A DNA stretch of 64,000 nucleotides from Candidatus Micrarchaeota archaeon (GTDB lineage: Archaea > B1Sed10-29 > WALL01 > WAMD01): NCBI GenBank assembly GCA_964652335.1, contig CAZZDL010000001.1, positions 89,216 through 153,215 on the forward strand. The letters run 5' to 3'. The notes under the pieces are model-generated. The model was given only the letters and a program-made list of their open reading frames with translations. It did not search any database and had not been told where the DNA came from. Positions 4,860-62,802 of the stretch are shown here, one piece after another (position 1 is the first letter of the stretch; each line of letters opens with the position of its first letter). Both the position numbers and the translations under genes were made by a program.

Positions 4860-4863
4860 AACA

Positions 4864-13024: not shown

Positions 13025-15373
13025 TCACTCACTACCAGAGCTAATTAACGTCACTCTAGTCGGCTCGTTTGCAGATTTATCTCTTTCAAACCGATAGAGA
13101 GTCCCAGAGACAGCCCTTTCCATTTCATCGTCGTGCGTAATTATAAATATCTGTTCTACTAGACCTGGAAGGTGGTCCTTTAGAGTTAATGCAAGAGTTT
13201 TCACACCCTCTTTATCAAGATTATGTGTGGGTTCGTCTAGTATTAACCAGCTCAGTTTTTGAGTTAGTACCAACGCAAAGGCCACCCTCAAGGCCAAAGC
13301 AGCAGAACTTCTTTCCCCACCAGATGCTATTCCCTCAACATTGACCCATTCCCCATCATTCCTTTGCAGTTCCAGCACATAGTCCTTTTCAGCCACGTTT
13401 AACCTAAGAGATTGATAATCCTCATATGGGTATATTCTTGGCCATATGTCTGCCAAAGCAGCATTCACAGTATCTACGAATTCCTCTCTAAGTTTTAGCT
13501 GACTTGTCTCAAGCGCTGTGGCCAGGATAGCTAGGGATTTTGATATATCCTCAAATATTTTTATCTCTTCCTCCAATTTCCTTCTCCATTCTAGCTTGTC
13601 CTCTAACTCTTTGATTAACCTCTCCTTTTCCCTCACTATTTCAAATTTCCCGGCTAGTTTTGCCTTGATAGAGGAGAGATCTGAGTTTAGTTTTATGTAT
13701 TTTTCCTTTACCCTTTCGTATTCGGATTCATCAAATTTTATTTTATCCAAGTTCTCTTTTAGCTTTGATATCTCAGAATTTATCTTCTCTATTTTTTCCA
13801 GAGTGTTTTTCAGCTCTGTTTTCATTTCGTCTATTTTTCTCAGCTCATTTACCTTCTCGGTAAGCAGCTTTACCTGATCCATCTTAGTCTTTTTCTCCTC
13901 TCTGAGCTTGTTTATTTTATCCTCAATTTCCTTGACTTCATTTGCCAATTGCTCTTCATTCTCAATCTTTATCTCTCTAATCTCTTTTTCAATGTTCTCA
14001 ACGCCTTTCTCAGCCACAAGAATGTCTCTTATGATCCTCTCAATATCCATCTTTTTCCTTTTTCCTTCGTTTATCTTTTCCCTTACTAATTTGATTTCAC
14101 CTTTTGCTTTCTTAATTCCATCTTTGGCATCCATTAATAATTTCACCCTTTTTTCATTAGGTAGATCGGATTCACAAACAGGACATACTCCTTCAGCCTT
14201 TGAAAGAGATCGCTCCCTGTCCTCAAGTTTGTTTATCAATCCGATGAGGTTTGTCAATCTGTCATTCAACTCTTCTAATTCTTTATCTGCCTTTTCAAGT
14301 TCTTTATTCCATTTCTCTTTCTCTTTAATCTTTTCTTTGAGAGAAATAAGTCTTTTTTCCAGCTCTTCCTTCCTCTTTTTTGAGCTTCTTGTTTTCTCCA
14401 ATTTTGTGGCGAGGTCTAGTTTAATATTGGATAACTCGTTGATGCTGTTGTCTATTTCTTTTATGTTGTTCTCAATATCCTGAAGAGATGCCTCTGCTTT
14501 CTCAAGCTCTGGAGCTATATCTATTTCAATATATTTACCTAGCTTTGTTACCATATTTGATTTCCTAGCGTTTAGCAACTCCAATTCTCCGCTCATTTTT
14601 TCAATTTTCCTCAAGTTTTCTTCCCTAGCAATTCTTTTCTTTTCAAGTTCATCTTTTTCCCTCCTAGTTTTGTCTAGTTCTGTTTCAATCGATTTTACTT
14701 CTACCTCTAGGCTGGCTATCTCCTTTTTAGTATTTTCTATTTCAGATTTGATCTTTTCTATGTTAGATCTTATTTCCTCTATCCTCATACCTTCAATCTC
14801 TTTCTTTCTGTCTTTGATTCTATCCTTCACCCGGTTTAGTGCAGAGACTAAGTTTTTCCTAGCGTCTTCAAATTTGTCTATCCCAAGCAGTTCATCTATT
14901 TTCTGTTTTCTTTTACCGGCAGGAATTTGAAGGAAGTAGTCTATCTGGTTCTGTTCGGAGTATATTGCTTTAGAGAATAAGTCGTAGTTCATTCCTATTA
15001 TCTTTGTAACACTTTCATTTACTCTGGAGATTATGGCCTCTTTTAACTTTCCTTCCTCAAACAGTTCTGCCTTGCTAGTCCCTTTTCCCCTTGTTATCTC
15101 TCTTATTATCCTATACTCTTTCCCATCCACTTCTAGATCTAGCTCTATTCTAGCTTTGTTCTTCACCTCAGGCTTATTCATTATGTAATCCTCAAGTTTC
15201 ACCTTCCTTGACTGAACGTTTGGAAATGTCCCAAATAAAGCAAAACATATAGCATCCATAACTGAAGATTTACCAGAGCCCATTCTCCCAACTAGGACAT
15301 TAGTCCCTTTAGAAAAGACCAGTTCTGATCTTTGGTGGGATCTCCAGTTCTCTAATAGGATTCGCTTAATCAT
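13025..15373 (-). CDS. rad50: Rad50-family DNA double-strand-break repair ATPase (solo; no adjacent mre11)
   Basis: Walker A GRMGSGKSS, central zinc hook CPVC, long K/E-rich coiled coils, signature SGGERS, Walker B LILDEPTHNLD. Confidence 0.8.
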   Translation of the reverse strand: MIKRILLENWRSHQRSELVFSKGTNVLVGRMGSGKSSVMDAICFALFGTFPNVQSRKVKLEDYIMNKPEVKNKARIELDLEVDGKEYRIIREITRGKGTSKAELFEEGKLKEAIISRVNESVTKIIGMNYDLFSKAIYSEQNQIDYFLQIPAGKRKQKIDELLGIDKFEDARKNLVSALNRVKDRIKDRKKEIEGMRIEEIRSNIEKIKSEIENTKKEIASLEVEVKSIETELDKTRREKDELEKKRIAREENLRKIEKMSGELELLNARKSNMVTKLGKYIEIDIAPELEKAEASLQDIENNIKEIDNSINELSNIKLDLATKLEKTRSSKKRKEELEKRLISLKEKIKEKEKWNKELEKADKELEELNDRLTNLIGLINKLEDRERSLSKAEGVCPVCESDLPNEKRVKLLMDAKDGIKKAKGEIKLVREKINEGKRKKMDIERIIRDILVAEKGVENIEKEIREIKIENEEQLANEVKEIEDKINKLREEKKTKMDQVKLLTEKVNELRKIDEMKTELKNTLEKIEKINSEISKLKENLDKIKFDESEYERVKEKYIKLNSDLSSIKAKLAGKFEIVREKERLIKELEDKLEWRRKLEEEIKIFEDISKSLAILATALETSQLKLREEFVDTVNAALADIWPRIYPYEDYQSLRLNVAEKDYVLELQRNDGEWVNVEGIASGGERSSAALALRVAFALVLTQKLSWLILDEPTHNLDKEGVKTLALTLKDHLPGLVEQIFIITHDDEMERAVSGTLYRFERDKSANEPTRVTLISSGSE

Positions 15374-15464
15374 TGCCTAATTTTTTGTTTGTTTGTGTTA
15401 TAATTATTTCCGGTTATGGTTATAAACAGGAAGAATCATTAAACTAAAGGACAAAGGTGGTTAT

Positions 15465-17924
15465 ATGAAGAGAAAGCTCAAAAAAGATGATAATAAGGGA
15501 ATATCCCCCATTGTTTCCGTCGTCCTGTTGATTGCTATTGCAGTCATAGCCGCGGTTAGCATTTATTTCTGGTCCGCAGGCCTAGTCACAAAGCAACCGA
15601 CGCCTGAGGGCCCAATCCCAATAACTGCTGTTCCTTTGGACAATCAAGGCCATGTGGCTGTTGCAAACCTTGGTAACAAGCCATTGACACTTAGCAAGTT
15701 AAACTCTACTGCGGGTGTTGAGTGTGACTTTGGTGGGACCGTCACAATCCAGCCTGGAGGGCAGGCTATTTGTACTATTCCTCCAAAGTCTGGGAAGATT
15801 GTTTTGTGGGGTTCTGGGACAGGTTCAACAGAGATAGAGCTTTCTGGTGTTGCAGAGGTAACTGTTACGAGCTCGCCTGGGTTTTCCACTTCATCCGTTA
15901 CTCAGGCAACTGAAGAGGACTTTGAAGAGGGAGCGTTCACAAATACAAGCACAGGATCAGACGAAGTCACATTAAAGGAACAATCCGTGGTGAGCATCGC
16001 CGACGTAACAGATTCAGGCTTTTTTGGAGGAGGGAGTGACAGTCATTTACCAAACGCAGGTTATCCTGGAGGTCTAGCTGTAGGAGACATAAACGACGAT
16101 GGGAAAAAAGACATTATTATCTCCTCCCCAGGATCATATTCAAACGATGGTAGGGTTTACATATTCTTTGACATAGAGAATACTCAATGGGATCATGGCA
16201 TAGGTTATGCTAACATTACAATATATGGAGCCACTGATGGAGTTATTACTGGTCCGAGTGGGGTCTTGGGAGACATAAACAATGATGGGAAGGATGATCT
16301 GATTATAGGAGAACTTTGTGATACTTCATCTTGTGACGGTAAGGTTTTCATAGTGTATGGTCCATTATCTCCTGGTAGTTACAATATAAAGTATATAGCT
16401 AATGCAACGATATCTGGAGGACAATATTCCAACCTTGGTTACGGAATATTCGTTTATGATATAAACAAGGATGGAAAGATGGATTTCATGGTCGGCGCAT
16501 CTAATGAATCAGGAGGGAACGGTAGTTATTATTTAGTATATGGGAACAGCTATTCAGGCAACTATAACATCACAGATGTTTACTCAGCTAAGATAACAGG
16601 GAATCAATCCAGTGAGCATGTGGGGTATGGACCAGTAGCATTTGGAGATGCAAACGGAGATGGAAAAGTAGATATTTTGATAGGTTCTCCTTATTACGAT
16701 GTAGAAACAGGTTTAGCGTATGATAATCCATATGATGGTAGGGCTGTATTGTTCTATGGGCCCATCTCTGGTAACCTCAGCATGAGCTCAGGGAATGTTA
16801 CTATCTATGGTAGAAGGATGTATGATTACCTTGGTTGGGACGTTGCTCTGTATGATATAAACAAAGACGGCAAAGACGATCTTATTATCTCTTCTCCAGG
16901 GTATGATCTATATGGTCCAGCTGCTGGCACTTGGAAGGATAGAGGTGCTGTTGCAGTCTTTTTCTCTCCAGCATCTTCAGGAACGTTCCAGTTCAATGAT
17001 ACACTGGATGCACATGGCAAATGTACATTTTCTACGAATGCGGATATGGCATTCACCTTTGACAACTCCACAGATCAGAAATTTGGAAGTGCAATAGGAA
17101 TAGGTGACTTCAAAGGAAATGGAGATATTGATATTGTTATAGGAGCAAAGGATATCAATAGAGCTTTTGTATATTATGACATTGAACCCACTAATGAAAT
17201 ATATGCTCAGGCTTATGGTATCGAAAGATATTGCTCAGGAGCCGATGTTACTCTTACGATTCCGTGGGATACAAGCGCATCTCTTGGAAGTTCCATATTG
17301 ACTAAGGACGTTAACAGTGATAACAAATACGACCTATTAATTGGATCTCCTGGTTACCATGGTGATGAGGGAAGAGTGGATATTCTATCAGGCAGTTTTC
17401 CATTTACACTGGCAAGCGATCATGGGAAATATTACTCAAAGGTCTTTGACTTAAATCATCTCTCTAATCTGACATATGTCACATGGACGTCAGATGAGCC
17501 AACTGGAACAGACCTAACTATAGAGCTGAGAATAGGGAATGCATCTGACGTAGATAACTCCTCAGGGTATGACATCTTGAACGTAGCTGGAACGAACGTT
17601 TCTAAGGGAAGTATCTCGTTGGGACCTGGAACCAAAGCTCAATACATAGCTTACTTCAATACAAGCGATACATCAAAGACACCAGTCCTCTACGACATAC
17701 AGCTTACCTACAAACCGCTCTACACAAATGTAACCTATACAATAAACTACGCCTCTGGCTTAAAATGGGTTGCACTAAACAGGAGCGATGGGACATTGGT
17801 AGCCAATGAAACAGTGAGCAATTGCGATACATTCTACACGAATACTAAGGAGGTTTCCACAGCGTATAGTTATACAGTTATATACAAGGGATGCGATGGT
17901 CAGACAAAGACATATGCGGTTTAA
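15465..17924 (+). CDS. large secreted FG-GAP (integrin-alpha-like beta-propeller) repeat protein with an N-terminal archaeal class III (pilin-type) signal peptide
   Basis: N-terminus MKRKLKKDDNKG then ISPIVSVVLLIAIAVIAAV; repeated DINNDGKDDLIIG, GDANGDGKVDILIGSP and DINKDGKDDLIISSPGY motifs. Confidence 0.7.
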   Translation: MKRKLKKDDNKGISPIVSVVLLIAIAVIAAVSIYFWSAGLVTKQPTPEGPIPITAVPLDNQGHVAVANLGNKPLTLSKLNSTAGVECDFGGTVTIQPGGQAICTIPPKSGKIVLWGSGTGSTEIELSGVAEVTVTSSPGFSTSSVTQATEEDFEEGAFTNTSTGSDEVTLKEQSVVSIADVTDSGFFGGGSDSHLPNAGYPGGLAVGDINDDGKKDIIISSPGSYSNDGRVYIFFDIENTQWDHGIGYANITIYGATDGVITGPSGVLGDINNDGKDDLIIGELCDTSSCDGKVFIVYGPLSPGSYNIKYIANATISGGQYSNLGYGIFVYDINKDGKMDFMVGASNESGGNGSYYLVYGNSYSGNYNITDVYSAKITGNQSSEHVGYGPVAFGDANGDGKVDILIGSPYYDVETGLAYDNPYDGRAVLFYGPISGNLSMSSGNVTIYGRRMYDYLGWDVALYDINKDGKDDLIISSPGYDLYGPAAGTWKDRGAVAVFFSPASSGTFQFNDTLDAHGKCTFSTNADMAFTFDNSTDQKFGSAIGIGDFKGNGDIDIVIGAKDINRAFVYYDIEPTNEIYAQAYGIERYCSGADVTLTIPWDTSASLGSSILTKDVNSDNKYDLLIGSPGYHGDEGRVDILSGSFPFTLASDHGKYYSKVFDLNHLSNLTYVTWTSDEPTGTDLTIELRIGNASDVDNSSGYDILNVAGTNVSKGSISLGPGTKAQYIAYFNTSDTSKTPVLYDIQLTYKPLYTNVTYTINYASGLKWVALNRSDGTLVANETVSNCDTFYTNTKEVSTAYSYTVIYKGCDGQTKTYAV

Positions 17925-22015: not shown

Positions 22016-23263
22016 TTACCACACCCACATCTTCTTTTTGTACTCCTTCAAGATATAACTAGTTTCTGGTTTGATTATCCTAGTCTTTTTGCCTAAATGC
22101 TTTGGGGATCTTGCTAGCAGGGATTTCACCAGCCTTTTGGCCTCCTTGAACTCTCTCTTCTTTTGACTGACAAGCCTGTCTTTGCTAATATACACTCTTT
22201 TATGCTTCTCAATAAATCTCTCTGAATTTTTAAAGTCAAACACACTTGGGCCTTTCACTAGTTTCATATCCGGAAGTTCATCAACTTCAAGGTCAAGTAG
22301 GATTTCAGCTTTTCTCTTAGAATCTGTCCACCACATCTTATCAGACACTTTGAACCCATTTAGCTCTAATTGCTTTTCTAGGAAATTTGCAAACGCCTCT
22401 AGCTGACTCCATATTATTTCCTCATTTTCTTCTTTTATACTCCAAGATATAACTAAAGGCCTTTCAGGAACCTTTCTTCCCTTTCCAGGAAGTTTCCCAG
22501 TTTTTAGGAACATTCTGGCTGCGAGAACAAACCTGGCTAGGGATTCTAAGCTAACTGGTGAGGCTACATTTCTATTTGGATCAACAGGGTCAATTACTAT
22601 TAGATGCCAATTGAACCTTTTTCTCAGGTAATTTGGGTCACAGTCATCAAGACAAATAACAACTGGAGGCTCCCAAACACTGGCTTCCTCCAGCACTCTA
22701 ATAAAGCTACCATACTTTATCACAAGTAATTCACACAAATATCCAGAGAACCCTCTAACGCGGATTTCTGCTCCATAAACACCAATTTTTTTCATGAACC
22801 ATTTTAGCTTGATAACTTCCTCTGGATTTTTTAGGTGTGAGATCACATAGTCTGTATGTAGAGGAGTTCTGTCCACAGCTGATATTATCCGCTCTCCTGG
22901 AGATATCTTGTAAGCAGGGACAATATCTATGAATCTTCCCTTTAGTTCTATCCTTGTGTATGGGTGCTCTGCATAATGTATTCTGGCTTTTCCCTTAAGG
23001 AGCGAGGCAACCGCCTTTCCTATTCTCAACCCTTCCTTTCTTAGAGTATCCTTGTCAATCCCCTTGTCAAATAAGACAAAGATATCCATATCTTTTTTTC
23101 CTCTTATAAACGTCCCCTTAGCTATTGAGCCAACAAGCCTGGCTTCTAATCCAAATTTGTCATTTACGAATGAGATTATCTTTTTAGCTAACCTTTTCTC
23201 TCTTTCCATTTCAGATCTGGATGGGAATATGCTCCCAGGTACTATTTTTTCAACCTTGTCCAT
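22016..23263 (-). CDS. cca: archaeal class I CCA-adding tRNA nucleotidyltransferase (start moved to the internal Met MDKVEK)
   Basis: GSIAKGTFIRGKKDMDIFVLF nucleotidyltransferase motif; the 488-aa track ORF would overlap the divergent ATPase gene. Confidence 0.7.
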   Translation of the reverse strand: MDKVEKIVPGSIFPSRSEMEREKRLAKKIISFVNDKFGLEARLVGSIAKGTFIRGKKDMDIFVLFDKGIDKDTLRKEGLRIGKAVASLLKGKARIHYAEHPYTRIELKGRFIDIVPAYKISPGERIISAVDRTPLHTDYVISHLKNPEEVIKLKWFMKKIGVYGAEIRVRGFSGYLCELLVIKYGSFIRVLEEASVWEPPVVICLDDCDPNYLRKRFNWHLIVIDPVDPNRNVASPVSLESLARFVLAARMFLKTGKLPGKGRKVPERPLVISWSIKEENEEIIWSQLEAFANFLEKQLELNGFKVSDKMWWTDSKRKAEILLDLEVDELPDMKLVKGPSVFDFKNSERFIEKHKRVYISKDRLVSQKKREFKEAKRLVKSLLARSPKHLGKKTRIIKPETSYILKEYKKKMWVW

Positions 23264-23309
23264 CAAATCAACACCTAGTTTTTTATGTATTTTTTGCTTT
23301 TCTATATTT

Positions 23310-24749
23310 ATGTCTTCCATTAAGAAAATCAATGATATTACCGTATATCTTGTTGATCTTCCAAAGTTAAGCGAGGAGGAAAAGAAATTCATTGATTCAA
23401 TAATAGAATCTGCAGTTAGGGATTTCACAGACGCAGAGTTATCTAGGATATTCTTGGTGGATGAAAAGAAGGGTGAATTCATCCACGACGTAAAGGCATT
23501 GCTGTCTAAAGTGCAGTTTACTGTTTATCCACACGAGAGGGATCTTGTTAGATCAAGGGTTGAGAAGTTGGTTGCGAAGTACATTGGTTCAAAAAGTAAA
23601 AAGATAGTTGACCTTGCGATAGATTACTTGTTTGGTTTTGGAAGGATAACGCCTCTGCTTTTGGACCCTGATATTGAGGAGATAATGATAAATGGAGAGT
23701 CCAAGCCAGTTTTTGTAGCTCATAGGTCCTACGGTATGTGCAGGACAAATATTGTTTATGATTCAAGAGAGGAGCTAGAGCTGTTAGCTGAAAGAATATT
23801 GAACATGAGGAAGCCAACGAGGCCAATAATAGATGGCTCATTGGAGGATGGCTCTAGGTTTAGTTTGGTCTTGCCACCCGTGTCACACGCTCCAACGATA
23901 ACAATAAGGAAGTTCACGTCGGAGCCGTTTAGTATAGCCGAACTAGTCCTGAATGGGACAATGAGTATAGATCTGGCAGCTTTTCTTTGGATGGCAGTTG
24001 AAGGGATGAAGGTGAGGCCTTCAAATATCTTGATAGCTGGGGGAGCAGGATCTGGAAAGACCACGACTCTTAACGCGTTAATAGGATTCATCCCTTCTGG
24101 TGAGAGGATAGTTACAATTGAAGATACCCCCGAGCTAAACCTAGCCGAACGAGATAATGTGGTTAGATTGTATTCTTATTATGATAGTAAGAATTCTGTT
24201 AGCTTGGCAGACTTGGTTAAAGCTTCATTGAGACTGAGGCCAGACAGGATAATAGTTGGTGAAGTTAGAGGTAGTGAAGCAGAATCAATGTTTACAGCAA
24301 TGGATGTTGGATGCTCAGGATCAATGGGGACTATCCATGCTAACTCTGCAAAGGAAGTGATAAAGAGGTTAAAGAATAAGCCAATGAATGTTCCAGAGAC
24401 TTTAATTCCATTGCTTGATATAATCTTAGTACAGCATAGAGTGAACGTTCCAGGAAAAGGGATAGTTAGGAGAATAGTTGAAGTGACAGAAGTGGATTAT
24501 CTAGACAAGATAACGCTTAATACAATATACAGATGGGATAGAGAATCTGACAGTTTGGTGAAATCAGATATACCTCCAACCTTGTTTGATAAGCTTTCCT
24601 CCTTGACAGGTCTTACTAAGCTGGAGATAATGGACGAGCTTGAGAAAAGGAAAAGAACATTGAAGAACGCGTTGAACAGAGGAATTAAGACTTACAATGA
24701 GTTATATCCTGAGATATCCAAAGACCTTAGTTCCAGATCTATGTCTTAG
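23310..24749 (+). CDS. FlaI/TadA/VirB11-family secretion ATPase (orphan paralogue of the 35031 gene); start moved to the internal Met MSSIKK
   Basis: Walker A GGAGSGKTT, Asp box, Walker B RPDRIIVGEVRG, His box GTIHANS, and a TITIRKF motif shared with the 35031 paralogue. Confidence 0.8.
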   Translation: MSSIKKINDITVYLVDLPKLSEEEKKFIDSIIESAVRDFTDAELSRIFLVDEKKGEFIHDVKALLSKVQFTVYPHERDLVRSRVEKLVAKYIGSKSKKIVDLAIDYLFGFGRITPLLLDPDIEEIMINGESKPVFVAHRSYGMCRTNIVYDSREELELLAERILNMRKPTRPIIDGSLEDGSRFSLVLPPVSHAPTITIRKFTSEPFSIAELVLNGTMSIDLAAFLWMAVEGMKVRPSNILIAGGAGSGKTTTLNALIGFIPSGERIVTIEDTPELNLAERDNVVRLYSYYDSKNSVSLADLVKASLRLRPDRIIVGEVRGSEAESMFTAMDVGCSGSMGTIHANSAKEVIKRLKNKPMNVPETLIPLLDIILVQHRVNVPGKGIVRRIVEVTEVDYLDKITLNTIYRWDRESDSLVKSDIPPTLFDKLSSLTGLTKLEIMDELEKRKRTLKNALNRGIKTYNELYPEISKDLSSRSMS

Positions 24750-26280
24750 TGATTACTCCTATCTCAACAAGTTTTTCTACAGCCGCTTTCACTAGAACTT
24801 TACTGTAACCTAATGTAACACTTGCATTATCTACATTCATTACTCCACCCCTGGATTTTATGTACTCAAATACGTCCATTAGTAGCGGATCCTCCGTTGA
24901 GAAATCAGGTCTCGTTATGTGGTATGTGCCGTCTACCACTAGTCTCTTGGTTGGCTTCTCTGCCATCAGTCTAGCTATTAAATTAGATTTATATGTTATT
25001 CCAAAGAAGCCGATTATAGTTAGCAGGACTACCACCACTATTAGCCAAATTACATTGATACAGAACTTCCCTATACATACTATTCCAACTTTTACCGCAC
25101 TTTCAAACGCGCAGTTTCCTATTTCATCTTTACAAAAGTAAGGATCTGGTTCCTTGTATATAACGTCGTATTCTGTCTTTAAGTTGAATGGGTCGTATTC
25201 CCTTGTTAACTCCCCAAGATTCGTTTCAACCCAAGCATAGTAGTTTCCCCCTCTTTGTTTCCCTATAATCAGCCTGGCAGGAATACCTACCCTCCTTGCA
25301 GATTCTCTAAATATCAATGCCTTTTCCAAACTGTCATATGACGATTTATTGCTCATCACTAGCCAGTCTACATTCGTTGTCAATGGGAAATCTGGACTGC
25401 CTGATGGCAAGTCGTTCACGTAGTCTACAATTGTTGCGTATATCTCGGAGGAGCCAGATGTTAGGTCTATGCTCGGTACGAATGTTGAGGAGGCGTATTT
25501 GTTTTCTTCATTTAGTAATGGATCTTTCTCAGATAGTAGGAACACTTCCTTGTCAACAACTGATTTCACAGGAAATGCATTGAGTATTGTTGATTCTGCA
25601 AAGTACGCTCCCAAGTAATGAAACTCTAGAGTATAGGTGGATTTGGCAGGAATCTTAACTGCCCATATGAACACTTTAGATGGTTGCATAGTAACATTCA
25701 CATCTGGGAGAGGATAACTTGGAGGGTACGGTTCAAAGTATATTATTAACATGTTTCCATACAATCCCCTATCTGTTGGAGACAAATATGCAAAATGTTT
25801 TGATTGATCCTTTGCAAATGGTGCGTACATTGAATAGGGATTGTTTTCATCAGTGATCTTTACCTCAACTATAACGTCTGTTTCCTTTGTATTTTCTAAT
25901 TTTATCTCCTGTATAACATCCTTGTCAGTTATAGTCACTTGAACGTTTGCATAGACATCCTCTGCAAAGGCTTCAGGATACGTTACCTTGAAGTTACTTA
26001 TGTCTGATCCAACCACAGGCTTGTCAAATCTCGGTTCAGGCATCTCTATCTCAGAGTTTAATACTCTCATGTATGGAAACGGGAATATTGGCATTAGATT
26101 GTTTACTAGCATTCTGTTCTCTGATGGGTTTATCTTTACTAAATGTTTGTCAGACGAAAAAAGCATGAAATTGTTTTCGTCTTCTCCAACGAAGGTTAGA
26201 GCAAATACAAATTGCGACGCTAGTAATAAACCAGTAATGATGACTAGTATGTTAAAGCAATTTTTCATGCACAATTTCAT
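24739..26280 (-). CDS. secreted, membrane-anchored protein with a large extracytoplasmic domain, one TM and a C-terminal cytoplasmic winged-helix-like domain
   Basis: signal peptide MKLCMKNCFNILVIITGLLLASQFVFA; TM VIWLIVVVVLLTIIGFFGI; C-terminal LLMDVFEYIKSRGG...SVTLGYSKVLVKAAVEKLVEIGVI resembles a wHTH. Confidence 0.5.
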   Translation of the reverse strand: MKLCMKNCFNILVIITGLLLASQFVFALTFVGEDENNFMLFSSDKHLVKINPSENRMLVNNLMPIFPFPYMRVLNSEIEMPEPRFDKPVVGSDISNFKVTYPEAFAEDVYANVQVTITDKDVIQEIKLENTKETDVIVEVKITDENNPYSMYAPFAKDQSKHFAYLSPTDRGLYGNMLIIYFEPYPPSYPLPDVNVTMQPSKVFIWAVKIPAKSTYTLEFHYLGAYFAESTILNAFPVKSVVDKEVFLLSEKDPLLNEENKYASSTFVPSIDLTSGSSEIYATIVDYVNDLPSGSPDFPLTTNVDWLVMSNKSSYDSLEKALIFRESARRVGIPARLIIGKQRGGNYYAWVETNLGELTREYDPFNLKTEYDVIYKEPDPYFCKDEIGNCAFESAVKVGIVCIGKFCINVIWLIVVVVLLTIIGFFGITYKSNLIARLMAEKPTKRLVVDGTYHITRPDFSTEDPLLMDVFEYIKSRGGVMNVDNASVTLGYSKVLVKAAVEKLVEIGVITKT

Positions 26281-26779
26281 AAACTGGTCCCTCCCTCGTT
26301 AGTTTGCTCTTCATCAGCAAGATCTTATCAATTTTAAATTCTCTCTCAATCTTTTTTCCGATCATGCTTGATAATGCACTATTCGGCCTTTCCTTTACTC
26401 TTGCAAGTGTTATGTGTGGCACGTAGTTCTTATCTCTTTGGAATCCGATTTCAGCCAACTCTGCATCTATAAAATCATGTATACTTAAAATGCTTTCTGA
26501 TTCTACACCCAGCCATATCACTCTTACATAGTTTTTGTTTGGAAAGGCTCCTACACTAGTAGTATGGCATTCAAACGGTCTTTCATCAACTAGTTCAAGA
26601 ATATTTACCAATTTGTCAATCCTACTCTCTGGGACTTCTCCCAGGAATTTTAATGTTATGTGCAGGTTCTCCCTCTCAACCAATTTCATTTTTACCCCAG
26701 TTTTCTTTAGCTCCTCCTGGAGAGAAAGACATTCTTTTATGATATCATCGGTTATTGGGAACCCGAGAAACAGTCTCAC
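26252..26779 (-). CDS. thpR: RNA 2',3'-cyclic phosphodiesterase / 2'-5' RNA ligase (2H phosphoesterase)
   Basis: two H-x-T-x motifs, HITLKF and HITLARV. Confidence 0.75.
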   Translation of the reverse strand: MRLFLGFPITDDIIKECLSLQEELKKTGVKMKLVERENLHITLKFLGEVPESRIDKLVNILELVDERPFECHTTSVGAFPNKNYVRVIWLGVESESILSIHDFIDAELAEIGFQRDKNYVPHITLARVKERPNSALSSMIGKKIEREFKIDKILLMKSKLTREGPVYEIVHEKLL

Positions 26780-29459: not shown

Positions 29460-29885
29460 ATGATAGAGTTAGATGAAGTGGATAAAAGGATACTTGAGCT
29501 CCTAAAACAGAATTCTAGGCTTTCATTCTCTGAGATAGCTAGGCAGTTCGGCTTTTCTGACGTAGCAATAAGGAAGAGAATAGAAAAGCTAGTTGAGAGA
29601 GGGGTTGTAAAAAGGTTTACCTGTGAGCTAGACTACGCAAAGCTAGGGAAACCAGTATCTGCGTTTATCTTCATAAAGACTAGAGCAGATAGGACAAGTG
29701 AAGTATTGGATGCCTTGAAGGAGATTCCAGATATACAGGAAATATATCAAGTGATGGGAGAGTACGATATAATAGCAAGGGCAAATGTTTCCAGCATAGA
29801 GGCGTTAAAGGAGATGACAGAGAAAAGGATATCCAATATCCATGGTGTAATGGAGGTAAAACCAAACATCATCTTCTCCCAGTGA
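29460..29885 (+). CDS. lrp: Lrp/AsnC family transcriptional regulator
   Basis: KRILELLKQNSRLSFSEIARQFGFSDVAIRKRIEKLVERGVV HTH followed by a RAM domain. Confidence 0.8.
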   Translation: MIELDEVDKRILELLKQNSRLSFSEIARQFGFSDVAIRKRIEKLVERGVVKRFTCELDYAKLGKPVSAFIFIKTRADRTSEVLDALKEIPDIQEIYQVMGEYDIIARANVSSIEALKEMTEKRISNIHGVMEVKPNIIFSQ

Positions 29886-30267: not shown

Positions 30268-30784
30268 AGTTAAGGATTTTTCTGGTTTGGAGAAGGCTTT
30301 GAGTAGAGCAGAGTTTGTTGGGGAGATGTCTGAGGAGGATGTATACTATGACCTGGGAAAGGAGGATAGGGTTTTGAGGCTTAGAATTAGGGATATGGAT
30401 GGGCGTCGGTCTATGATACTTACTTTGAAGATAAAGAAAAATAACAAAGGAGTAATGGTTGTGGACGAAAGGGAATGTGAGGTGGGAGAAGGCATAGCTG
30501 AGATCCTGGAAGGATTAGGTTTTAAGCAGTTTTTCAAGAAATCAAAGAAGAGAAGGACATTTGTCTTGGATGGAGTTAGTGTCAACCTGGATGATGTTGA
30601 CGGTCTAGGAAAATTTGTTGAGCTGGAATTTATAGGAGACCAAAACGATGGAGAGATAAAGCTTAAGGAGGTTGCTAGAAAGCTAGGGTTAGATTGGGAT
30701 GAAAGGATAGTTGACACATACATGGCAATGCTCCAGGCAAGTGAGCGGAAAGCTATTAAACCAGAGAAACCAAAAAAGAAATGA
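30245..30784 (+). CDS. CYTH-domain protein (triphosphate tunnel metalloenzyme / class IV adenylyl cyclase-like)
   Basis: N-terminal MEIEAKFRV, the EIExKF signature of CYTH. Confidence 0.6.
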   Translation: MEIEAKFRVKDFSGLEKALSRAEFVGEMSEEDVYYDLGKEDRVLRLRIRDMDGRRSMILTLKIKKNNKGVMVVDERECEVGEGIAEILEGLGFKQFFKKSKKRRTFVLDGVSVNLDDVDGLGKFVELEFIGDQNDGEIKLKEVARKLGLDWDERIVDTYMAMLQASERKAIKPEKPKKK

Positions 30785-31557
30785 TGAAAAAATTGATTGC
30801 TCTGCTGTTATTAATGCCTTTGTCTTTGGCATATGTCATTCATTTGGTTACACCTGTAAATACATACTTAGAGCCATTGATCCCTGTGGAAATCTCCCCA
30901 GTTGGCCCAGGTTACAGAGTGGTTTTGGCTGTTGATAGGAATACTCCAGAAAATTTTGTTTGGGACAACATTGATATGGAGACAGGTCCAAATTGGACAG
31001 TGACGTATGCAAAGGATTATAGATATATATATGCAATAATAGAAGTCCCTGTTGATGCTGAAGAGGGAGATTATCTATTAAGCTTTGTCGTTAGTGACAG
31101 AAATGGCGATCACGTTCAAGAGGATTCAATAGTGAGGATAACTGTCACCAGAAATCCAAACGATTTAGCAGAGATAGGAGACCTTGCTTCCACATCCCTA
31201 GTGGCTGGGAACGATTCAATATCATTTACAGTATACAATAAGGCGCTTGGAGAAGCCAGATACAGAATCTTTTATTCCATAGAGGGAATATCAAAGGAAT
31301 ATTCAAAGGATGTTATAATAGATCCAAACACGACAAAGTCAGTGGAGATCCCGATCAACATACCAAATGAGGGATTCTACAATATCACAGTTAGAGTGGA
31401 AAGCTTAGATACTCCAATAATAAACAAGACCATGTCCAGGCAGTATTACGTAAGGCCGACATTGAGGTCAAAGTTGTCAAGCATAAGGAATGCGTTTCCA
31501 ATAGTCCCAATAAATCTTGCACCGTTTTATGCCATACTAGGATTATTTCTGTGGTGA
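30781..31557 (+). CDS. surface protein with signal peptide and C-terminal TM anchor
   Basis: N-terminus MMKKLIALLLLMPLSLA; C-terminus FYAILGLFLW. Confidence 0.45.
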   Translation: MMKKLIALLLLMPLSLAYVIHLVTPVNTYLEPLIPVEISPVGPGYRVVLAVDRNTPENFVWDNIDMETGPNWTVTYAKDYRYIYAIIEVPVDAEEGDYLLSFVVSDRNGDHVQEDSIVRITVTRNPNDLAEIGDLASTSLVAGNDSISFTVYNKALGEARYRIFYSIEGISKEYSKDVIIDPNTTKSVEIPINIPNEGFYNITVRVESLDTPIINKTMSRQYYVRPTLRSKLSSIRNAFPIVPINLAPFYAILGLFLW

Positions 31558-35030: not shown

Positions 35031-36602
35031 ATGGCGTATCTAGATGAGTTAATAAAATTAGGTAAAGAGAAGGAGAAGAAGAAAACTGAAGAAAAAAAGA
35101 CAGAGGAAGAGAAGAAACCATCTAAGATAGACGAATGGGTTGAAGGGTCTTTACCTCCTGGAAGCGAGCTTATAGACGCATATGGAATATGCAAGATATA
35201 CAAAGTAAAAGGAGAAAAACAGCTAATCTATGCAGTTCCAGTTCCAAAACCTGCTGGACCTGATAGAGTCATAATTGACACAATAAAAGAGGCAGCAACA
35301 AAATTGATAACTGTTTCACCCGAGCAGATAAAGGATCCAGACGAGAGAAGGGAGTTCTACAAAAAGAGAGTTATGGAAATAATAAAATCCACACCAGAGC
35401 TTGGAGTCCCTCCGAACTGGCAGCCATTCTATGCAGAAACTGTTGTTAGGGAGATGATAGGATACGGGGCGCTAGATCTCCTTCTTGAGGATGATGCATT
35501 AGAAGAAATAATGGTCATTGGTCCGGGAAAACCAGTGTATGTATTCCATAGAAAATATGAGATGTGTAAAACAAATGTAATATTTGGAACTGATGATGAT
35601 ATTAGAGCTATAATAGATAGGATAGCGAGGGACGTTGGAAGAAGAATAGATATACAGGTCCCATTGTTGGATGCTAGACTACCAGATGGGTCCAGGGTAA
35701 ATGCTACAATTCCTCCAATCAGCTTAAACGGTTCAACTATAACAATAAGGAAGTTTAGGGAAGATCCTTACACTATCGTTGATTTAATAAAGAACGGCAC
35801 CGTTAGCTCTGAACTAGCTGCCTTCATGTGGATAGCTGGGGAAGGGCTTTCAGCTAAGCCAGCAAATGTTATAATATCTGGAGGAACAAGTTCTGGAAAA
35901 ACGACAACGCTAAACGTCATGAGCATGTTTATCCCACCAACAGAAAGGGTTATTACAATAGAAGATACAGCAGAGTTGAAGCTTCCAATAGAACATTGGA
36001 TAAGGTTTGAGACTAGACCGCCAGGACTTGAGGGAACTGGGGAAATAGACATGAATGCATTGGTGAAGAACTCACTGAGAATGAGGCCAGATAGGGTTAT
36101 AGTTGGTGAAGTAAGAGGTGAGGAGGCGTTTACATTATTCACTGCAATGAACACAGGTCACGACGGTTGTATGGGCACTGTTCACGCCAATGATTCAAGG
36201 GAAACCATAGTCAGGCTAACGAATCCGCCAATGAATGTCCCAAGCGTCATGCTGTCTGCATTGGATATAATAATAACACAGAAAAAGATACATGATAGAA
36301 GGAAGGGCACCATAAGAAGAGTAACAGAGGTTGCAGAAGTCACTGGTGTTTTGGAGGGCAAACCACAACTCATTTATCTCTATGAATGGGATCCAGTCAC
36401 TGATCAAATCAAGCCTACAGGTGTCCCGAGTAAGTATCTTAGAACACTGGAAAGGTATACTGGTCTTAGTCATGCAGAGGTCATGGAGGAGCTAGAAAGA
36501 AGGAAGGAGTTCCTTGAAGGGCTTGTTTCAAAGGGTATCAGGGACATAAAATCTGTTTCTAAAGAGATAACAGCTTACATAGCTGGTGGACATAATGGCT
36601 AA
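35031..36602 (+). CDS. type IV pilus assembly ATPase, FlaI/TadA family
   Basis: Walker A GGTSSGKTT, Walker B RPDRVIVGEVRGEEA, His box GTVHANDS, TITIRKF motif. Confidence 0.85.
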   Translation: MAYLDELIKLGKEKEKKKTEEKKTEEEKKPSKIDEWVEGSLPPGSELIDAYGICKIYKVKGEKQLIYAVPVPKPAGPDRVIIDTIKEAATKLITVSPEQIKDPDERREFYKKRVMEIIKSTPELGVPPNWQPFYAETVVREMIGYGALDLLLEDDALEEIMVIGPGKPVYVFHRKYEMCKTNVIFGTDDDIRAIIDRIARDVGRRIDIQVPLLDARLPDGSRVNATIPPISLNGSTITIRKFREDPYTIVDLIKNGTVSSELAAFMWIAGEGLSAKPANVIISGGTSSGKTTTLNVMSMFIPPTERVITIEDTAELKLPIEHWIRFETRPPGLEGTGEIDMNALVKNSLRMRPDRVIVGEVRGEEAFTLFTAMNTGHDGCMGTVHANDSRETIVRLTNPPMNVPSVMLSALDIIITQKKIHDRRKGTIRRVTEVAEVTGVLEGKPQLIYLYEWDPVTDQIKPTGVPSKYLRTLERYTGLSHAEVMEELERRKEFLEGLVSKGIRDIKSVSKEITAYIAGGHNG

Positions 36603-37680
36603 GAACATAGAAGTAGAGGAAAGAAAACAAGCAGGTTATAGGAAGACCGACGTAGAAACAATAATACGAAGAATGAAAAAAGTCTATCAAGAGAGAGGAT
36701 ATTCAGAAGAAGAAGCAAAAGCACTTGTTTTGAAAAGGGCAGTTACAGGTACAAGGGCTATTGATATTGAGACAATGGCCCCAAAGGACCTAGTAAAATC
36801 CAACAACGCATTGCTGCGGATAGTTGGGATTGTTTTTTCCAGATTTAGCTTTCTTTCTTCCCTAGCAGAAAAGATTGCTGACTCTGATATAGGATCAAGG
36901 TTAATGAGGGCACTAGATTCAGTAAATTCAAGGTATTCAACAAGTCAGTACATAGCTATTGCCATGTTTGTATCCTTGTTCTCGGCTTTCATACTTTCTT
37001 TACTGTTTACATTCGCTTTGATGGACATAGCTGACCCAGTGGTGATGTTTCCGATAGTGTTTATCACTTCGTATCTGTTCTCATTTTTTATTGCGTTGAA
37101 GCTCCCTGAATCAAATGCTAAAAGGAGAGGAAAGAACATAGATAAAGTTCTTCCATTCGCATTGAGACATTTTGCGACTGAGATAAAGGCAGGTGTTGGT
37201 ATTCACAAAGCAATGAGAGCCATTGCAAATTCAGGATACGGAGCTTTGTCAGAGGAGTTTCAGAGGGTGATAGACGAAATAGAAAAGGGAGTTACCACAG
37301 AGGATGCTCTAGAAGCTTTGGCAAATAGGACAGAGTCTGATGATCTTGCTAGATCAATATTGCACATAATAAGAGCCTTGAGAACTGGTGGAAATCTGTC
37401 AGAGATATTAACAAAGATTGCAGATGATGTTTCTTTTAACCTAGCTGTTAGGATGAGAGATTTCTCAGAAAGATTGACATTGATAAGTTTGTTCTATATG
37501 ATGGCAGGAGTTGTGTTCCCTGTTTTCATATCTGTTTTGTTTGCGATATTCTCATCTGCCCCGTCCTTGGGTCTAGCCGGTGTTGTAGGACCAGATATTC
37601 TCATGATGATATATCTCATAATAATTCCCATGTCCCTGGGTGTTATCCTGTACATAATTAATGTAACTCAGCCAATGTGA
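36586..37680 (+). CDS. type II secretion system F-domain membrane protein (TadC/FlaJ-like, single domain)
   Basis: multi-TM protein with one T2SSF-like soluble domain; overlaps the ATPase stop. Confidence 0.65.
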   Translation: MDIMAKNIEVEERKQAGYRKTDVETIIRRMKKVYQERGYSEEEAKALVLKRAVTGTRAIDIETMAPKDLVKSNNALLRIVGIVFSRFSFLSSLAEKIADSDIGSRLMRALDSVNSRYSTSQYIAIAMFVSLFSAFILSLLFTFALMDIADPVVMFPIVFITSYLFSFFIALKLPESNAKRRGKNIDKVLPFALRHFATEIKAGVGIHKAMRAIANSGYGALSEEFQRVIDEIEKGVTTEDALEALANRTESDDLARSILHIIRALRTGGNLSEILTKIADDVSFNLAVRMRDFSERLTLISLFYMMAGVVFPVFISVLFAIFSSAPSLGLAGVVGPDILMMIYLIIIPMSLGVILYIINVTQPM

Positions 37681-38549
37681 TGATCATGGAGATATACAGG
37701 CAGTACAAGGCCGCCATAAAGGCGATGAATGAAGAGTGGGAACCAGACATAGTTCTGCTAGAGGCATTGTTCTTATCGTCCATATTGTTCGTTTATGTTG
37801 GATTATTCGTTGATATCTTCCTTGGTGGATTACTAGCTTTGATAGTAATGGATCTAGCTGTTGGATATCCAATTCACAGAGTGCAAAAACGGATAGAGAG
37901 CATAGAAAAAGGTCTTCCTGATGTTTTAAACCATATAGCTATCAGCATAAGGGCAGGGGCGACAGTTGAGGCGGCTTTGAAGGAGATAGCGGAATACAGG
38001 TATGGCATTCTCTCTAAGGAAATGAAAAAGGTCTTGCTGGCAATGAAGAAGGGAAAGACATTTGAGGACGCATTTAGAGATTTTGCAGAATCTTCAGGTT
38101 CTCCACTTGTTGAAAAGACAGCAGAGGTTATAATATCTGCGAAGATGTCTGGAGGAGGATTGACTGCAGCGTTAACTAGTATAGCAGATGATATTAGACA
38201 CATATACAGGCTGAAAAAAGAGAGAAAAGCAAGAACAACGACGCAAGTTCTGTTCATAATAGTTGCAGCAAATTTCGTTGCACCAATGATATTTAGCTTG
38301 CTTACCGGTGTCATGCAGTTTATGGGTTATATTGCTGGTGAAGCAGCAACGCCAGCGTTTGAGGCAATAACGTTTTATTTCAAGGTTTATCTAATAATCT
38401 CAGCCGTTTTCTCATCTGTTGCAGCGGCATTAATAAGGGAAGGAAACCTGAGTAAGGTAGTTATATATGCACCAGTTTTGTTACTAATAACGTATGGTAT
38501 ATACATGGGGGTGAGTAGCTTTGCACTCAAGCTTTTTATCGGAGGATAG
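37677..38549 (+). CDS. second type II secretion system F-domain membrane protein (TadB/FlaJ-like, single domain)
   Basis: ATGA-coupled to the previous gene; hydrophobic N-terminus and T2SSF-like segment LPDVLNHIAISIRAGATVEAAL. Confidence 0.65.
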   Translation: MMIMEIYRQYKAAIKAMNEEWEPDIVLLEALFLSSILFVYVGLFVDIFLGGLLALIVMDLAVGYPIHRVQKRIESIEKGLPDVLNHIAISIRAGATVEAALKEIAEYRYGILSKEMKKVLLAMKKGKTFEDAFRDFAESSGSPLVEKTAEVIISAKMSGGGLTAALTSIADDIRHIYRLKKERKARTTTQVLFIIVAANFVAPMIFSLLTGVMQFMGYIAGEAATPAFEAITFYFKVYLIISAVFSSVAAALIREGNLSKVVIYAPVLLLITYGIYMGVSSFALKLFIGG

Positions 38550-38679
38550 AGGGCAGATATCACTTGAACAGATACTGCTGTTGTCATCTATAGTCATGGG
38601 AATGTTGGTGCTTGGGTATTTGGTCAAAACACAGCTGAAGAATTTGTTTGCTGAGCAGAAGGTGGTTGCCAACGAAACA

Positions 38680-38716
38680 TTTAATAAGAGCATATGAGTT
38701 TATGCTAAAGGAGGTG
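38680..38716 (+). promoter_or_regulatory. TATA-like box (TTTAATAA, 38680-38687) plus a strong Shine-Dalgarno (AAGGAGGTG, 38708-38716) ahead of the major pilin gene
   Basis: GGAGGTG lies 6 nt before the ATG; own promoter in the 173-nt spacer. Confidence 0.35.
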
Positions 38717-38722
38717 TAATTT

Positions 38723-39100
38723 ATGTTTGGTAGAAAAGGTCAAGGAGCATTGGAATACTTATTGATATTGGCTGCAGTTTTAGTGATAGCAGTAATAGTG
38801 ATATTGGTTGCACACAGGATATCTACACCAGCTCAAACATCTGTTACAGTAAACCAGGACAAATTTGACTGTGCAAAGGTAGGTATAGAATTGTTGAATT
38901 ACAATGAGCTTCCACAACAGGCCAGTGACGTATCTGTGAAGTACAACGACATTTCAGATACGTGTGAGCAAACCACAACTGAGCCAGACAGTTACGATGC
39001 AAGCTGTAAGATACACTTTAAGGACAACTCAGAGCACTACCTATACGTGAATCAGCCAAATACAACATCGGTAGAGTGTTATATACAGGTATCAGCATAA
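38723..39100 (+). CDS. major pilin, Flp-like, with class III signal peptide
   Basis: MFGRKG then QGALEYLLILAAVLVIAVIVILV; G-Q cleavage context with Glu+5 and Tyr+6. Confidence 0.75.
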   Translation: MFGRKGQGALEYLLILAAVLVIAVIVILVAHRISTPAQTSVTVNQDKFDCAKVGIELLNYNELPQQASDVSVKYNDISDTCEQTTTEPDSYDASCKIHFKDNSEHYLYVNQPNTTSVECYIQVSA

Positions 39101-39113
39101 GAGGAGTGAGTAG

Positions 39114-39284
39114 ATGGATGACCGCGGCCAGACCTCGTTGGAATACTTGTATCTTCTAGCTTTTGTTGTAGGTCTGGCCGCAGCAGTTGCTCTGATAGTC
39201 AATGACATTCTAGCTATTCAGTCCAGGGCAAAGACAAAACTAGAGTATTATAGAGATCACATCCTAGGGAAGATATTAAGATGA
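39114..39284 (+). CDS. Flp-like mini-pilin (56 aa), not in the ORF track
   Basis: translation MDDRGQTSLEYLYLLAFVVGLAAAVALIV...; TGA overlaps the ATG of the peptidase gene (ATGA). Confidence 0.6.
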   Translation: MDDRGQTSLEYLYLLAFVVGLAAAVALIVNDILAIQSRAKTKLEYYRDHILGKILR

Positions 39285-40231
39285 TCTACATAGGCATAGC
39301 ATTGATAATGGTCTGTTTGGCTACTTATTTTGATTTAAAAAATAGAGTCATCCCAAGAGAAATAACCCTGGGTGGATTAGGATTAGGTCTTGCACTTAGA
39401 TTCTTGGATTCTGGGATTCATTCAAACCCTTTAAGCTTTGTCACAGTCTTGTTTTCTGTATTGACCACATTTGTTCTTGTTTATTTTCTCTGGAGGATAG
39501 GAGTCCTTGCAGGGGGAGATGCTAAGCTTTTGACAGCTTTGGCAGCTTATTTACCAGTATTCCCTTCATCCACATTTCATATCTTCTATAGACTATCCTT
39601 TGTCCCGATAATATACAATGGGATCATGGCATTTACCCCGTTTTTGTTGGTCTATTCTTTTGTCTTAGGAGATGGTTTTAGGAAACTTACACGCATTGCG
39701 CAAAAGGCGATTGGCCTTTCATTCCTTTCATTCTCTTCTTTCTCATTTTTTAGTTGGCCATTGAGTATTATTGTATTCTTAGTATTAAGCTACCTACCGT
39801 ACAAGGCATTAATTTTTCTGGTACCAGCAATCCTGGCAGGGTTAAGATTTGGATTTGGCGGATTAATTTATCAGTTCTTACTGTTCTTCTTATTGTCGTC
39901 CTTCTACGAACTTACAGTTGGGTCTATTTCATTATTTGTTAAGACAAAGAAAGTTAACGAGCTCAAAGAAGGGGATGTTTTGTACGATGTGGTGATTGAT
40001 TGTAAAATTGTTAAAAGGGATTTGTTCAACATTATCAAAGCTATTACCCAGGGAATAGCTCCATTGTCTAGAGGATTGTCTAAGGGTGAGATAGCCAAAC
40101 TAAAGAAATGTGGAATTGATACAGTTAGAATCCAGCAATCTTTCCCATTCACACCAGTCATCCTTGCCGGTTTTATTATCTGTGTAACATTTGGGGATTT
40201 GATCTATCTCTTACTTAATAGCTATTTCTAA
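39281..40231 (+). CDS. prepilin peptidase (A24 family, TadV/EppA/FlaK-like) with a C-terminal extension
   Basis: catalytic Asp contexts YFDLKNRVIPRE and LAGGDAKLL; poly-TM. Confidence 0.75.
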   Translation: MIYIGIALIMVCLATYFDLKNRVIPREITLGGLGLGLALRFLDSGIHSNPLSFVTVLFSVLTTFVLVYFLWRIGVLAGGDAKLLTALAAYLPVFPSSTFHIFYRLSFVPIIYNGIMAFTPFLLVYSFVLGDGFRKLTRIAQKAIGLSFLSFSSFSFFSWPLSIIVFLVLSYLPYKALIFLVPAILAGLRFGFGGLIYQFLLFFLLSSFYELTVGSISLFVKTKKVNELKEGDVLYDVVIDCKIVKRDLFNIIKAITQGIAPLSRGLSKGEIAKLKKCGIDTVRIQQSFPFTPVILAGFIICVTFGDLIYLLLNSYF

Positions 40232-40266
40232 CCAAAAAGGCTAAATAGGTATGATATGTTATTCTC

Positions 40267-62087: not shown

Positions 62088-62088
62088 A

Positions 62089-62801: not shown

Positions 62802-62802
62802 T

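Follow-up and report, generated by a model that had tools for sequence, protein, structure and literature searches.

The stretch of DNA analysed here (the window, 64 kb of a 177.6-kb contig) comes from a metagenome-assembled genome (MAG) of a DPANN archaeon. The subject of this report is a pair of convergent genes within it, one for a platform-less secretion ATPase of 479 residues (23310–24749, + strand) and one for a 513-residue membrane protein (24739–26280, − strand), which together with its family we call TGwH. Judged by its motifs, structural alignments and orthologues, the first product belongs to the archaeal FlaI/TadA/GspE2 family of secretion ATPases; it is intact, of the hexameric type and under purifying selection, and its phylogeny points to an old, DPANN-rich clade that diverged anciently from the ATPase of a complete type IV pilus operon in the same window. 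The second product is predicted to be a type I membrane protein with a Sec signal, a beta-sandwich, an inactive transglutaminase-like core, one transmembrane (TM) helix and a cytoplasmic winged helix. In our view, which is tentative and falls somewhat short of an even chance, the ATPase serves the pilus operon 10 kb away as an accessory motor, acting in trans on the platform encoded there, with TGwH as a candidate adaptor. The first-pass annotation of the window had recognized both genes, but had missed that the ATPase is an ancient DPANN clade at a fixed position on the cca side, and that the neighbourhood as a whole is syntenic.

Both genes lie on the 177.6-kb contig and both are also present on one identical 8-kb Logan contig. 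The G+C content is about 40% across the window, with no compositional break at the ATPase/TGwH locus. Relatives found by protein similarity are labelled 'Nanobdellati archaeon', 'Candidatus Micrarchaeota archaeon' or 'Candidatus Diapherotrites archaeon'. We found no description of this ATPase/TGwH pair in the literature on DPANN archaea and transglutaminase-like proteins or pili.

The orphan secretion ATPase

The reading frame of the ATPase starts with ATG at 23310 and ends with TAG at 24747–24749. A longer TTG-initiated open reading frame (ORF) from 23052, which overlaps cca, was rejected as an artefact; the close orthologues are 475–482 residues in length. The protein matches Pfam T2SSE (PF00437) with 129.2 bits against a cut-off of 24.9 (E = 1.9e-37). 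The best match in the Protein Data Bank (PDB) is afGspE (2OAP; E = 2.8e-69, query residues 59–465), the alignment with FlaI (4II7) covers residues 77–466 and CpaF was also matched. As indicated by the 2OAP and 4II7 alignments, the protein consists of an N-terminal domain of the FlaI/GspE2 type and an ATPase core. It falls under all of the NCBIfam equivalog cut-offs (282.7 against 550 bits for the FlaI model NF058587) and there is no archaellum context (fla genes) in its neighbourhood; in annotation it should be named neither FlaI nor CpaF.

The first-pass annotation had noted that TITIRKF and the box motifs of this family are shared with the operon ATPase at 35031, which proved correct. Such intact elements include TITIRKF, the Walker A motif GGAGSGKTT, the Asp box IVTIEDTPEL and the Walker B motif RPDRIIVGEVRGSEA with its catalytic Glu. 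The His box (window 24309–24344, residues 334–345) reads GCSGSMGTIHAN, in which the distal His is present and the proximal His is replaced by Cys. This Cys is found in the window ATPase and in seven orthologues, which form the closest clade, while the corresponding residue in most other clade members is His (Ile in P0027 and Gln in P0022). Orthologues of 475–508 residues were found in at least seven DPANN lineages, and the Walker A motif, Asp box and Walker B motif are kept in all of the orthologues (40–74% identity).

The proximal His-box Cys, and one MAG orthologue that was annotated as separate ORFs of 411 and 68 residues, could be taken as signs that the gene is a copy of the operon ATPase in decay, a pseudogene. 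We regard this as extremely improbable. The frame is full-length and without interruption, the remaining motifs (the breakage of which had been raised in the first-pass annotation) are all intact and the Cys is itself conserved. The gene is furthermore no recent copy of the operon gene, as described below, and the pseudogene idea was rejected on the motifs and full length kept in orthologues down to 41% identity. The split orthologue (L006, 9141–10572, assembly GCA_027000005.1) is accompanied by an nrdD gene that is split too, and its two ORFs probably result from assembly or frameshift errors and not from decay.

The two ATPases of the window share 38% identity over 472 residues. In a comparison with 120 database relatives, the operon ATPase shows 57–59% identity to the Thermococcus 'CpaF family' ATPases, with which it groups in a neighbour-joining tree (74% bootstrap). 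In the same tree the orphan ATPase and six orthologues (53–74% identity) form a tight clade with 100% bootstrap, which sits inside a poorly resolved DPANN-rich assemblage; the deep nodes are weak (16–29% bootstrap) and we claim no exact sister group for this clade. A recent duplication of the operon ATPase was rejected, the operon copy grouping with Thermococcus and the orphan copy in its own clade. These different groupings indicate that the two genes are old paralogues.

We note that the operon ATPase is nearer to the Thermococcus ATPases than to its co-resident paralogue. There may have been gene exchange between this vent DPANN lineage and the Thermococcales, which could be its hosts.

Genomic position and the pilus genes of the window

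The gene for the CCA-adding enzyme (cca, 22016–23263, − strand; Pfam tRNA_NucTransf2, CAA_C and NTP_transf_2) is the divergent neighbour of the ATPase gene. The spacer between them (23264–23309) is 46 bp in length with 78% A+T, as had been reported in the first-pass annotation, and is presumed to hold a bidirectional promoter, with starts that are likely to be leaderless. It measures 40–75 bp in nine of the ten relatives measured and 328 bp in L017. The sample comprised five lineages in which the context of TGwH is readable, namely the window type (L002–L010 and L014), L016, L015, L018 and L020–L026, and two further ATPase lineages, L017 and L019 (a Diapherotrites MAG), for a total of seven ATPase lineages. 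The position of the ATPase gene is fixed in all seven: it is divergent from cca, which adjoins it in 7/7, and convergent on either ligT or TGwH.

The flanking genes of the window ATPase are housekeeping genes: RibL, AspRS and cca lie to one side of it and ligT, nrdG, nrdD and lrp to the opposite side. None of its direct neighbours encodes a platform protein, a pilin or a peptidase, as the first-pass annotation had claimed. A scan of the ±7 kb around the ATPase, both in the window and in L014–L019, and of the shorter stretches available for L020–L026 found no T2SSF platform gene, and neither class III signal-peptide pilins nor an A24 peptidase adjoin the orphan ATPase. In the window, 5.4 kb separate the ATPase gene from the nearest pilin-like gene upstream of it, and 10.3 kb separate it from the start of the pilus operon downstream.

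That operon (35031–41837, + strand) is a complete type IV pilus (T4P) operon by its Pfam matches (T2SSE, two T2SSF, Class_IIIsignal and Peptidase_A24) and a scan of N-termini. It comprises the operon ATPase (35031–36602; T2SSE), a split TadC-like platform (36586–37680 and 37677–38549; T2SSF in each), three small class III signal-peptide pilins (38521–39284), an A24 prepilin peptidase (39281–40231; Peptidase_A24) and four more pilin-like genes (40267–41837), all on the + strand. A tblastn search of the 64-kb window found no other TadC platform and no third ATPase, which leaves 36586–38549 as its sole platform.

Two sets of possible pilin substrates in the window have no motor of their own. One is a second pilin island (61917–63764, both strands) of genes with class III signal peptides, which contains neither an ATPase nor a platform. 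The other is the upstream pilin-like gene mentioned above (15465–17924, + strand), which encodes an 819-residue protein with a pilin-type N-terminus and six FG-GAP (integrin-like) repeats (FG-GAP, E = 1.6e-37; weak match to Pilin_N). Its class III signal peptide reads MKRKLKKDDNKG/ISPIVSVVLLIAIAV, where the stroke marks the presumed cleavage point, after which the protein would begin with ISPIV. We consider it a candidate giant pilus-dependent, pilin-like adhesin.

Architecture of TGwH

The stop codon of the TGwH gene (24739–24741) lies within the 3′ end of the convergent ATPase gene, which ends at 24749, so that the two overlap by 11 nt as had been stated. The architecture proposed for the protein in the first-pass annotation was likewise recovered in each of its parts: a signal peptide, a large ectodomain, in which we recognize a transglutaminase-like core, a single TM helix and a cytoplasmic winged helix-turn-helix (wHTH). 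The AlphaFold2 model, computed from a six-member family alignment, is of moderate overall quality [predicted local distance difference test (pLDDT) 64.8]; its confident parts are the beta-sandwich (residues 28–225), the alpha/beta core (277–376) and a C-terminal three-helix domain (451–512).

By hydropathy the signal peptide comprises residues 1–28 (26197–26280, − strand), with an N-terminal hydrophobic stretch at residues 9–31 and a cleavage-type site, VFA/LT, at which cleavage is likely; the A-x-A-like site is conserved in homologues. The beta-sandwich that follows (residues about 29–225; 25606–26196, − strand) is extracytoplasmic and is defined by the AlphaFold2 strands at 28–225 and by Foldseek, with pLDDT values of 70–89 over residues 30–150. 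Its Foldseek matches are the supersandwich N-domains of GH94/GH65 phosphorylases, the P1 domain of YidC and aldose epimerases. The TM helix (residues about 408–431; 24988–25059, − strand) reaches a Kyte–Doolittle value of up to 3.06 and corresponds to an AlphaFold2 helix at 410–431; the sequence after it is rich in Lys and Arg, in agreement with the positive-inside rule.

The transglutaminase-like core (residues about 277–376; 25153–25452, − strand) falls below the threshold of Pfam PF01841 (Transglut_core; 18.7 bits against a gathering cut-off of 23, E = 0.0022), and the homologue P0005 alone carries a precomputed PF01841 match, which is marked 'faint'. No Pfam or NCBIfam family matches TGwH above threshold, with NCBIfam giving no model at all, and a profile of the whole 513-residue protein gave only weak winged-helix matches in the PDB and nothing for the ectodomain. 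The fold of the core is nevertheless supported by Foldseek, which returned 3ISR (a putative cysteine protease, E = 1.2e-4) and 4XZ7 (a TGase, E = 3e-3); the TM-scores are low because the whole TGwH model was the query. The pLDDT values of the core are mostly 68–92 but drop to about 56 at residues 300–310.

As a reference for the catalytic triad we used a canonical Cys-His-Asp transglutaminase-like paralogue, and an hhalign comparison of the core with it covers the GIP...HAW...DP segment. In TGwH the nucleophilic Cys is Ser317 and the His of 'HAW' is Tyr348, while Asp363 is kept in close members only. Every member of the family has Ser in place of the catalytic Cys and Tyr or Phe in place of the His, which makes the domain a pseudo-enzyme. 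The possibility of an active transglutaminase or protease was rejected on this family-wide replacement of the nucleophile and the His, and the domain is most plausibly a binding module and not an enzyme.

The reference protein is itself of interest. It is a 527-residue membrane-anchored transglutaminase-like protein encoded 5 kb from the ATPase/TGwH pair in L010 (9908–11491), with the triad intact. No counterpart of it was found in the window. We also note four cysteines just outside the TM helix of TGwH, Cys383, Cys390, Cys402 and Cys407 (residues 383–407; window 25060–25134, − strand), which are invariant in the close family and in L016 and absent from the L015 and L018 subfamilies. These residues could form disulfides or a metal site.

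A word-indexed search found six close homologues of TGwH. An exhaustive hidden Markov model search of 1.84 billion representatives extended the family to 50 members, about 45 of which have the transglutaminase-like/TM/winged-helix core; the named members are DPANN. A metagenome scan with the close-family alignment gave no matches, and one with alignment A7 was successful. The TGwH family, hitherto without annotation, joins known domains in a new way, with an inactive transglutaminase-like ectodomain and a membrane-tethered, non-basic winged helix of the Lrp type. In annotation the 513-residue protein should be named neither a protease nor a transcription factor.

The cytoplasmic winged helix

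Residues 449–513 of TGwH (24742–24936, − strand) form an acidic winged helix of the Lrp/AsnC type. Modelled alone (77 residues), the region adopts the three-helix wHTH fold with a pLDDT of 88.4. Its profile matches the helix-turn-helix (HTH) of the Lrp/AsnC gene of the window (29460–29885, + strand; hmmsearch, 6e-8), and hhalign aligns AVEKLVEIGVITK of TGwH with RIEKLVERGVVKR of Lrp at a probability of 95.6% (E = 1e-8). The Lrp/AsnC gene lies three genes from TGwH, and the TGwH winged helix may have been captured from a regulator of the Lrp type.

In the first-pass annotation this domain had suggested that TGwH is a one-component regulator in a surface-sensing circuit. On this reading TGwH would resemble ToxR or CadC, with an ectodomain that senses a surface cue and a winged helix that binds DNA, possibly to control pilus genes or the gene of the ATPase. 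In its favour, the C-terminal domain is a true wHTH that is homologous to the DNA-binding HTH of Lrp/AsnC, and the bitopic sensor–TM–HTH layout is known in bacteria from ToxR and CadC. However, the domain is acidic in eight of nine homologues (pI 4.5–5.6, net charge −2 to −5), whereas three authentic HTH domains encoded in the window, used as controls, have pI values of 7.9–10.3 and net charges of +1 to +8. The basic R-K-R at the start of the recognition helix of Lrp aligns with K/I/T-A/S-A in the TGwH family, and the ligand-binding and oligomerization (RAM) domain typical of Lrp is absent. The topology is inverted compared with ToxR and CadC, and the linker between the TM helix and the winged helix is only about 17 residues in length. 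In a large subfamily (L015 and P0143–P0166) a second TM helix or a long K/E-rich tail follows the winged helix; where there is a second TM helix, both ends of the domain are tied to the membrane. With the catalytic Cys and His of the ectodomain also gone, the regulator reading did not hold up and we consider it unlikely, as is DNA binding by the winged helix itself to judge from its residues. Its weak Pfam matches include the protein-binding winged helices EAP30 and RPA_C, and we infer that it is a membrane-apposed protein-docking module.

Conservation of gene order

In all five lineages with readable context the TGwH gene stands tail-to-tail with the ATPase gene, with −33 to about +50 nt between their 3′ ends; relatives thus conserve the pair's synteny, which the first-pass annotation had left to be checked. 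Across these lineages the ATPases are 41–74% and the TGwH proteins 21–68% identical to the window copies, with values of 41–44% and 21–30%, respectively, in the most distant TGwH lineages. Around the pair nrdG, ligT, AspRS, RibL and dCMP deaminase have been gained or lost. Two further TGwH members lie on contigs of the same size as those with ATPase orthologues. The adjacency is suggestive of functional coupling but is not proof of it.

On the other side of the pair, ligT (2′-5′ RNA ligase/LigT phosphoesterase; 26252–26779, − strand; Pfam LigT_PEase, 2e-30) overlaps the start of TGwH by 29 nt at its 3′ end, with nrdG and nrdD upstream on the same strand. The wider order in deep DPANN lineages (window 13025–33122; L014–L026) is rad50-(Mut7-C)-EF1-beta-cca-ATPase-(TGwH)-ligT-(nrdG)-nrdD-lrp-...-ELP3, which is kept at 32–50% protein identity across genomes with Nanobdellati, Micrarchaeota and Diapherotrites labels.

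Some further features of these neighbourhoods may be mentioned. Between a CYTH gene and ELP3, the window encodes a secreted 258-residue protein without any family match (30781–31557, + strand), orthologues of which (257–260 residues) occupy the same position in L002, L003, L005, L006, L008 and L014, the close relatives with loci that extend so far. L017, which is without TGwH, has a KaiC/FlaH-like ATPase (PF06745) just beyond cca (the coordinates listed in L017 are 4606–5364 and 14490–15434), and a second T2SSE ATPase 6 kb downstream that is 52% identical to the operon ATPase of the window.

Functional interpretation

Having no platform of its own, the orphan ATPase most likely acts in trans. 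On the reading that we tentatively prefer, it would do so on the single split TadC-like platform of the pilus operon 10 kb downstream, as an alternative motor either for another pilin set (such as the FG-GAP pilin-like adhesin or that of the second island) or for pilus movement in the opposite direction. The TGwH ectodomain would bind a surface or a host glycan or protein, and its winged helix would dock on, recruit or regulate the ATPase at the membrane, without binding DNA. TGwH is the best candidate for a membrane adaptor; any physical coupling of it to the ATPase is putative.

Several observations weigh against this reading. L017 and L019 keep cca-ATPase-ligT without TGwH, and therefore the ATPase does not need TGwH. 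The two genes are convergent and thus not co-transcribed, and TGwH seems to be the terminal gene in an nrdD-nrdG-ligT operon. The wider block of rad50, EF1-beta, cca, ligT, nrdD, lrp and ELP3 is syntenic over the same divergence, which weakens adjacency as functional evidence, and the presence of TGwH coincides with that of nrdD-lrp in the block, a pattern that fits one insertion event followed by long retention. The proximal His of the His box is replaced by Cys in the closest ATPase clade. Finally, the 64 kb are only part of the 177.6-kb contig, and another platform gene could lie elsewhere in the genome.

A rival reading takes the two genes to be neighbours by descent only, the ATPase being an accessory or alternative pilus motor and TGwH an unrelated surface protein (a pseudo-transglutaminase) that was inserted once between ligT and the ATPase gene and retained in a slowly rearranging block. 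Synteny at 32–50% identity from rad50 to ELP3, the two lineages without TGwH, the convergent orientation, the overlap of TGwH with ligT on its own strand and the tracking of nrdD-lrp, which suggests a single gain, are all in its favour, and we consider it quite possible, though not what we would expect. Against it, nothing has been inserted between the ATPase and TGwH genes in five deep lineages despite turnover of their neighbours, and a membrane-apposed, non-basic winged helix needs a cytoplasmic partner, for which the ATPase is the sole candidate encoded nearby. A further proposal is that the ATPase has left secretion and acts with cca and ligT in RNA or nucleic acid metabolism, as proposed for the MJ1533/PINA branch. 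Here one can point to cca and ligT, which flank the ATPase in 6–7 of the seven lineages, to the platform gene, which is never adjacent, and to MJ1533-like ATPases that lack a secretion context (PMC4858521). However, the orphan ATPase has no PIN or KH domain and aligns end to end, including the N-terminal domain, with FlaI and afGspE, whereas the match to the PINA model is weak (E = 3e-8 against 6e-84 for FlaI). Both cca and ligT lie on the opposite strand to the ATPase, so that there is no operon, and unrelated housekeeping genes are equally syntenic. A role of this kind seems very unlikely to us.

The preferred reading, an accessory motor acting in trans, can be carried further, to a DPANN-specific two-part host-contact device made up of the ATPase and TGwH. 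DPANN archaea are host-attached and have small genomes with few non-housekeeping genes. In such a device the dead transglutaminase/beta-sandwich ectodomain would bind a host glycan or S-layer component, a signal would pass through the single TM helix to the acidic winged helix, which would recruit or release the ATPase, and the shared platform would be handed from one motor to the other, so that extension might give way to retraction, say, or to secretion of the large FG-GAP pilin-like adhesin. We think this improbable as a whole; if true, archaea would have here a functional counterpart of a dedicated second pilus motor that is under the control of surface contact. Whatever its partner, the ATPase has been kept at one position over very deep divergence without a platform partner, and in small genomes with few non-housekeeping genes this retention suggests that it is likely to be important for the cell surface. 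To our knowledge, no retraction motor is known in archaea, and how two ATPases might share one platform is a question on which this locus bears.

Comparison with known systems

Comparison with afGspE from Archaeoglobus fulgidus (2OAP), FlaI from Sulfolobus acidocaldarius (4II7) and the bacterial Tad ATPase CpaF/TadA indicates that the orphan ATPase has the same two-domain layout (residues 59–466) and shares with them Walker A, the Asp box, Walker B, the distal His of the His box and TITIRKF. It differs from them in the Cys at the proximal His position and in its fixed place beside cca, with no platform, pilin or peptidase neighbour in seven lineages. Archaeal T4P loci have been described as ATPase–TadC pairs (Makarova et al., 2016; PMC4858521). 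The same survey reported nanoarchaeal ATPases the pilins of which could not be found and, in Euryarchaeota, paralogous ATPases that share pilins, where the duplicated unit is ATPase plus TadC and not the ATPase alone.

Type IV pilus systems in which PilB and PilT share the platform PilC offer a parallel, in that here too there are two paralogous ATPases, one platform in the sequenced region and pilin loci without a motor. However, the orphan ATPase is not PilT-like, the PilT family being absent from archaea (PMC4858521), and the sharing of the platform is in this case an inference of ours.

TGwH spans the membrane once, has a small cytoplasmic domain and is encoded next to a secretion ATPase, and in this it resembles the bitopic ATPase-anchoring proteins GspL and PilM–PilN of T2SS/T4P and the archaellum accessory proteins FlaH/FlaX. 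The analogy is functional only: there is no relationship in sequence or fold, the cytoplasmic domain being a winged helix and not actin-like or KaiC-like, the ectodomain combines a beta-sandwich with a transglutaminase-like domain, and the gene is convergent with that of the ATPase and not in its operon. Transglutaminase-family surface peptidases have been linked to archaeal T4P loci (PMC4858521). Compared by description with these proteins (arCOG02164, arCOG09555 and arCOG03450), TGwH shares the extracytoplasmic fold and the link to a T4P-type ATPase, but differs from them and from PF01841 in the replacement of Cys and His (by Ser and Tyr/Phe), its sub-threshold Pfam score and its C-terminal TM helix and winged helix.

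With ToxR and CadC, TGwH has in common a membrane-tethered wHTH and a large extracytoplasmic domain. In those proteins an N-terminal cytoplasmic DNA-binding domain is followed by the TM helix and a C-terminal periplasmic sensor, whereas in TGwH the order is inverted and the HTH is C-terminal. Compared with Lrp/AsnC, the HTH of TGwH is homologous but acidic, has lost the basic residues of the recognition helix and is accompanied by no RAM or effector domain.

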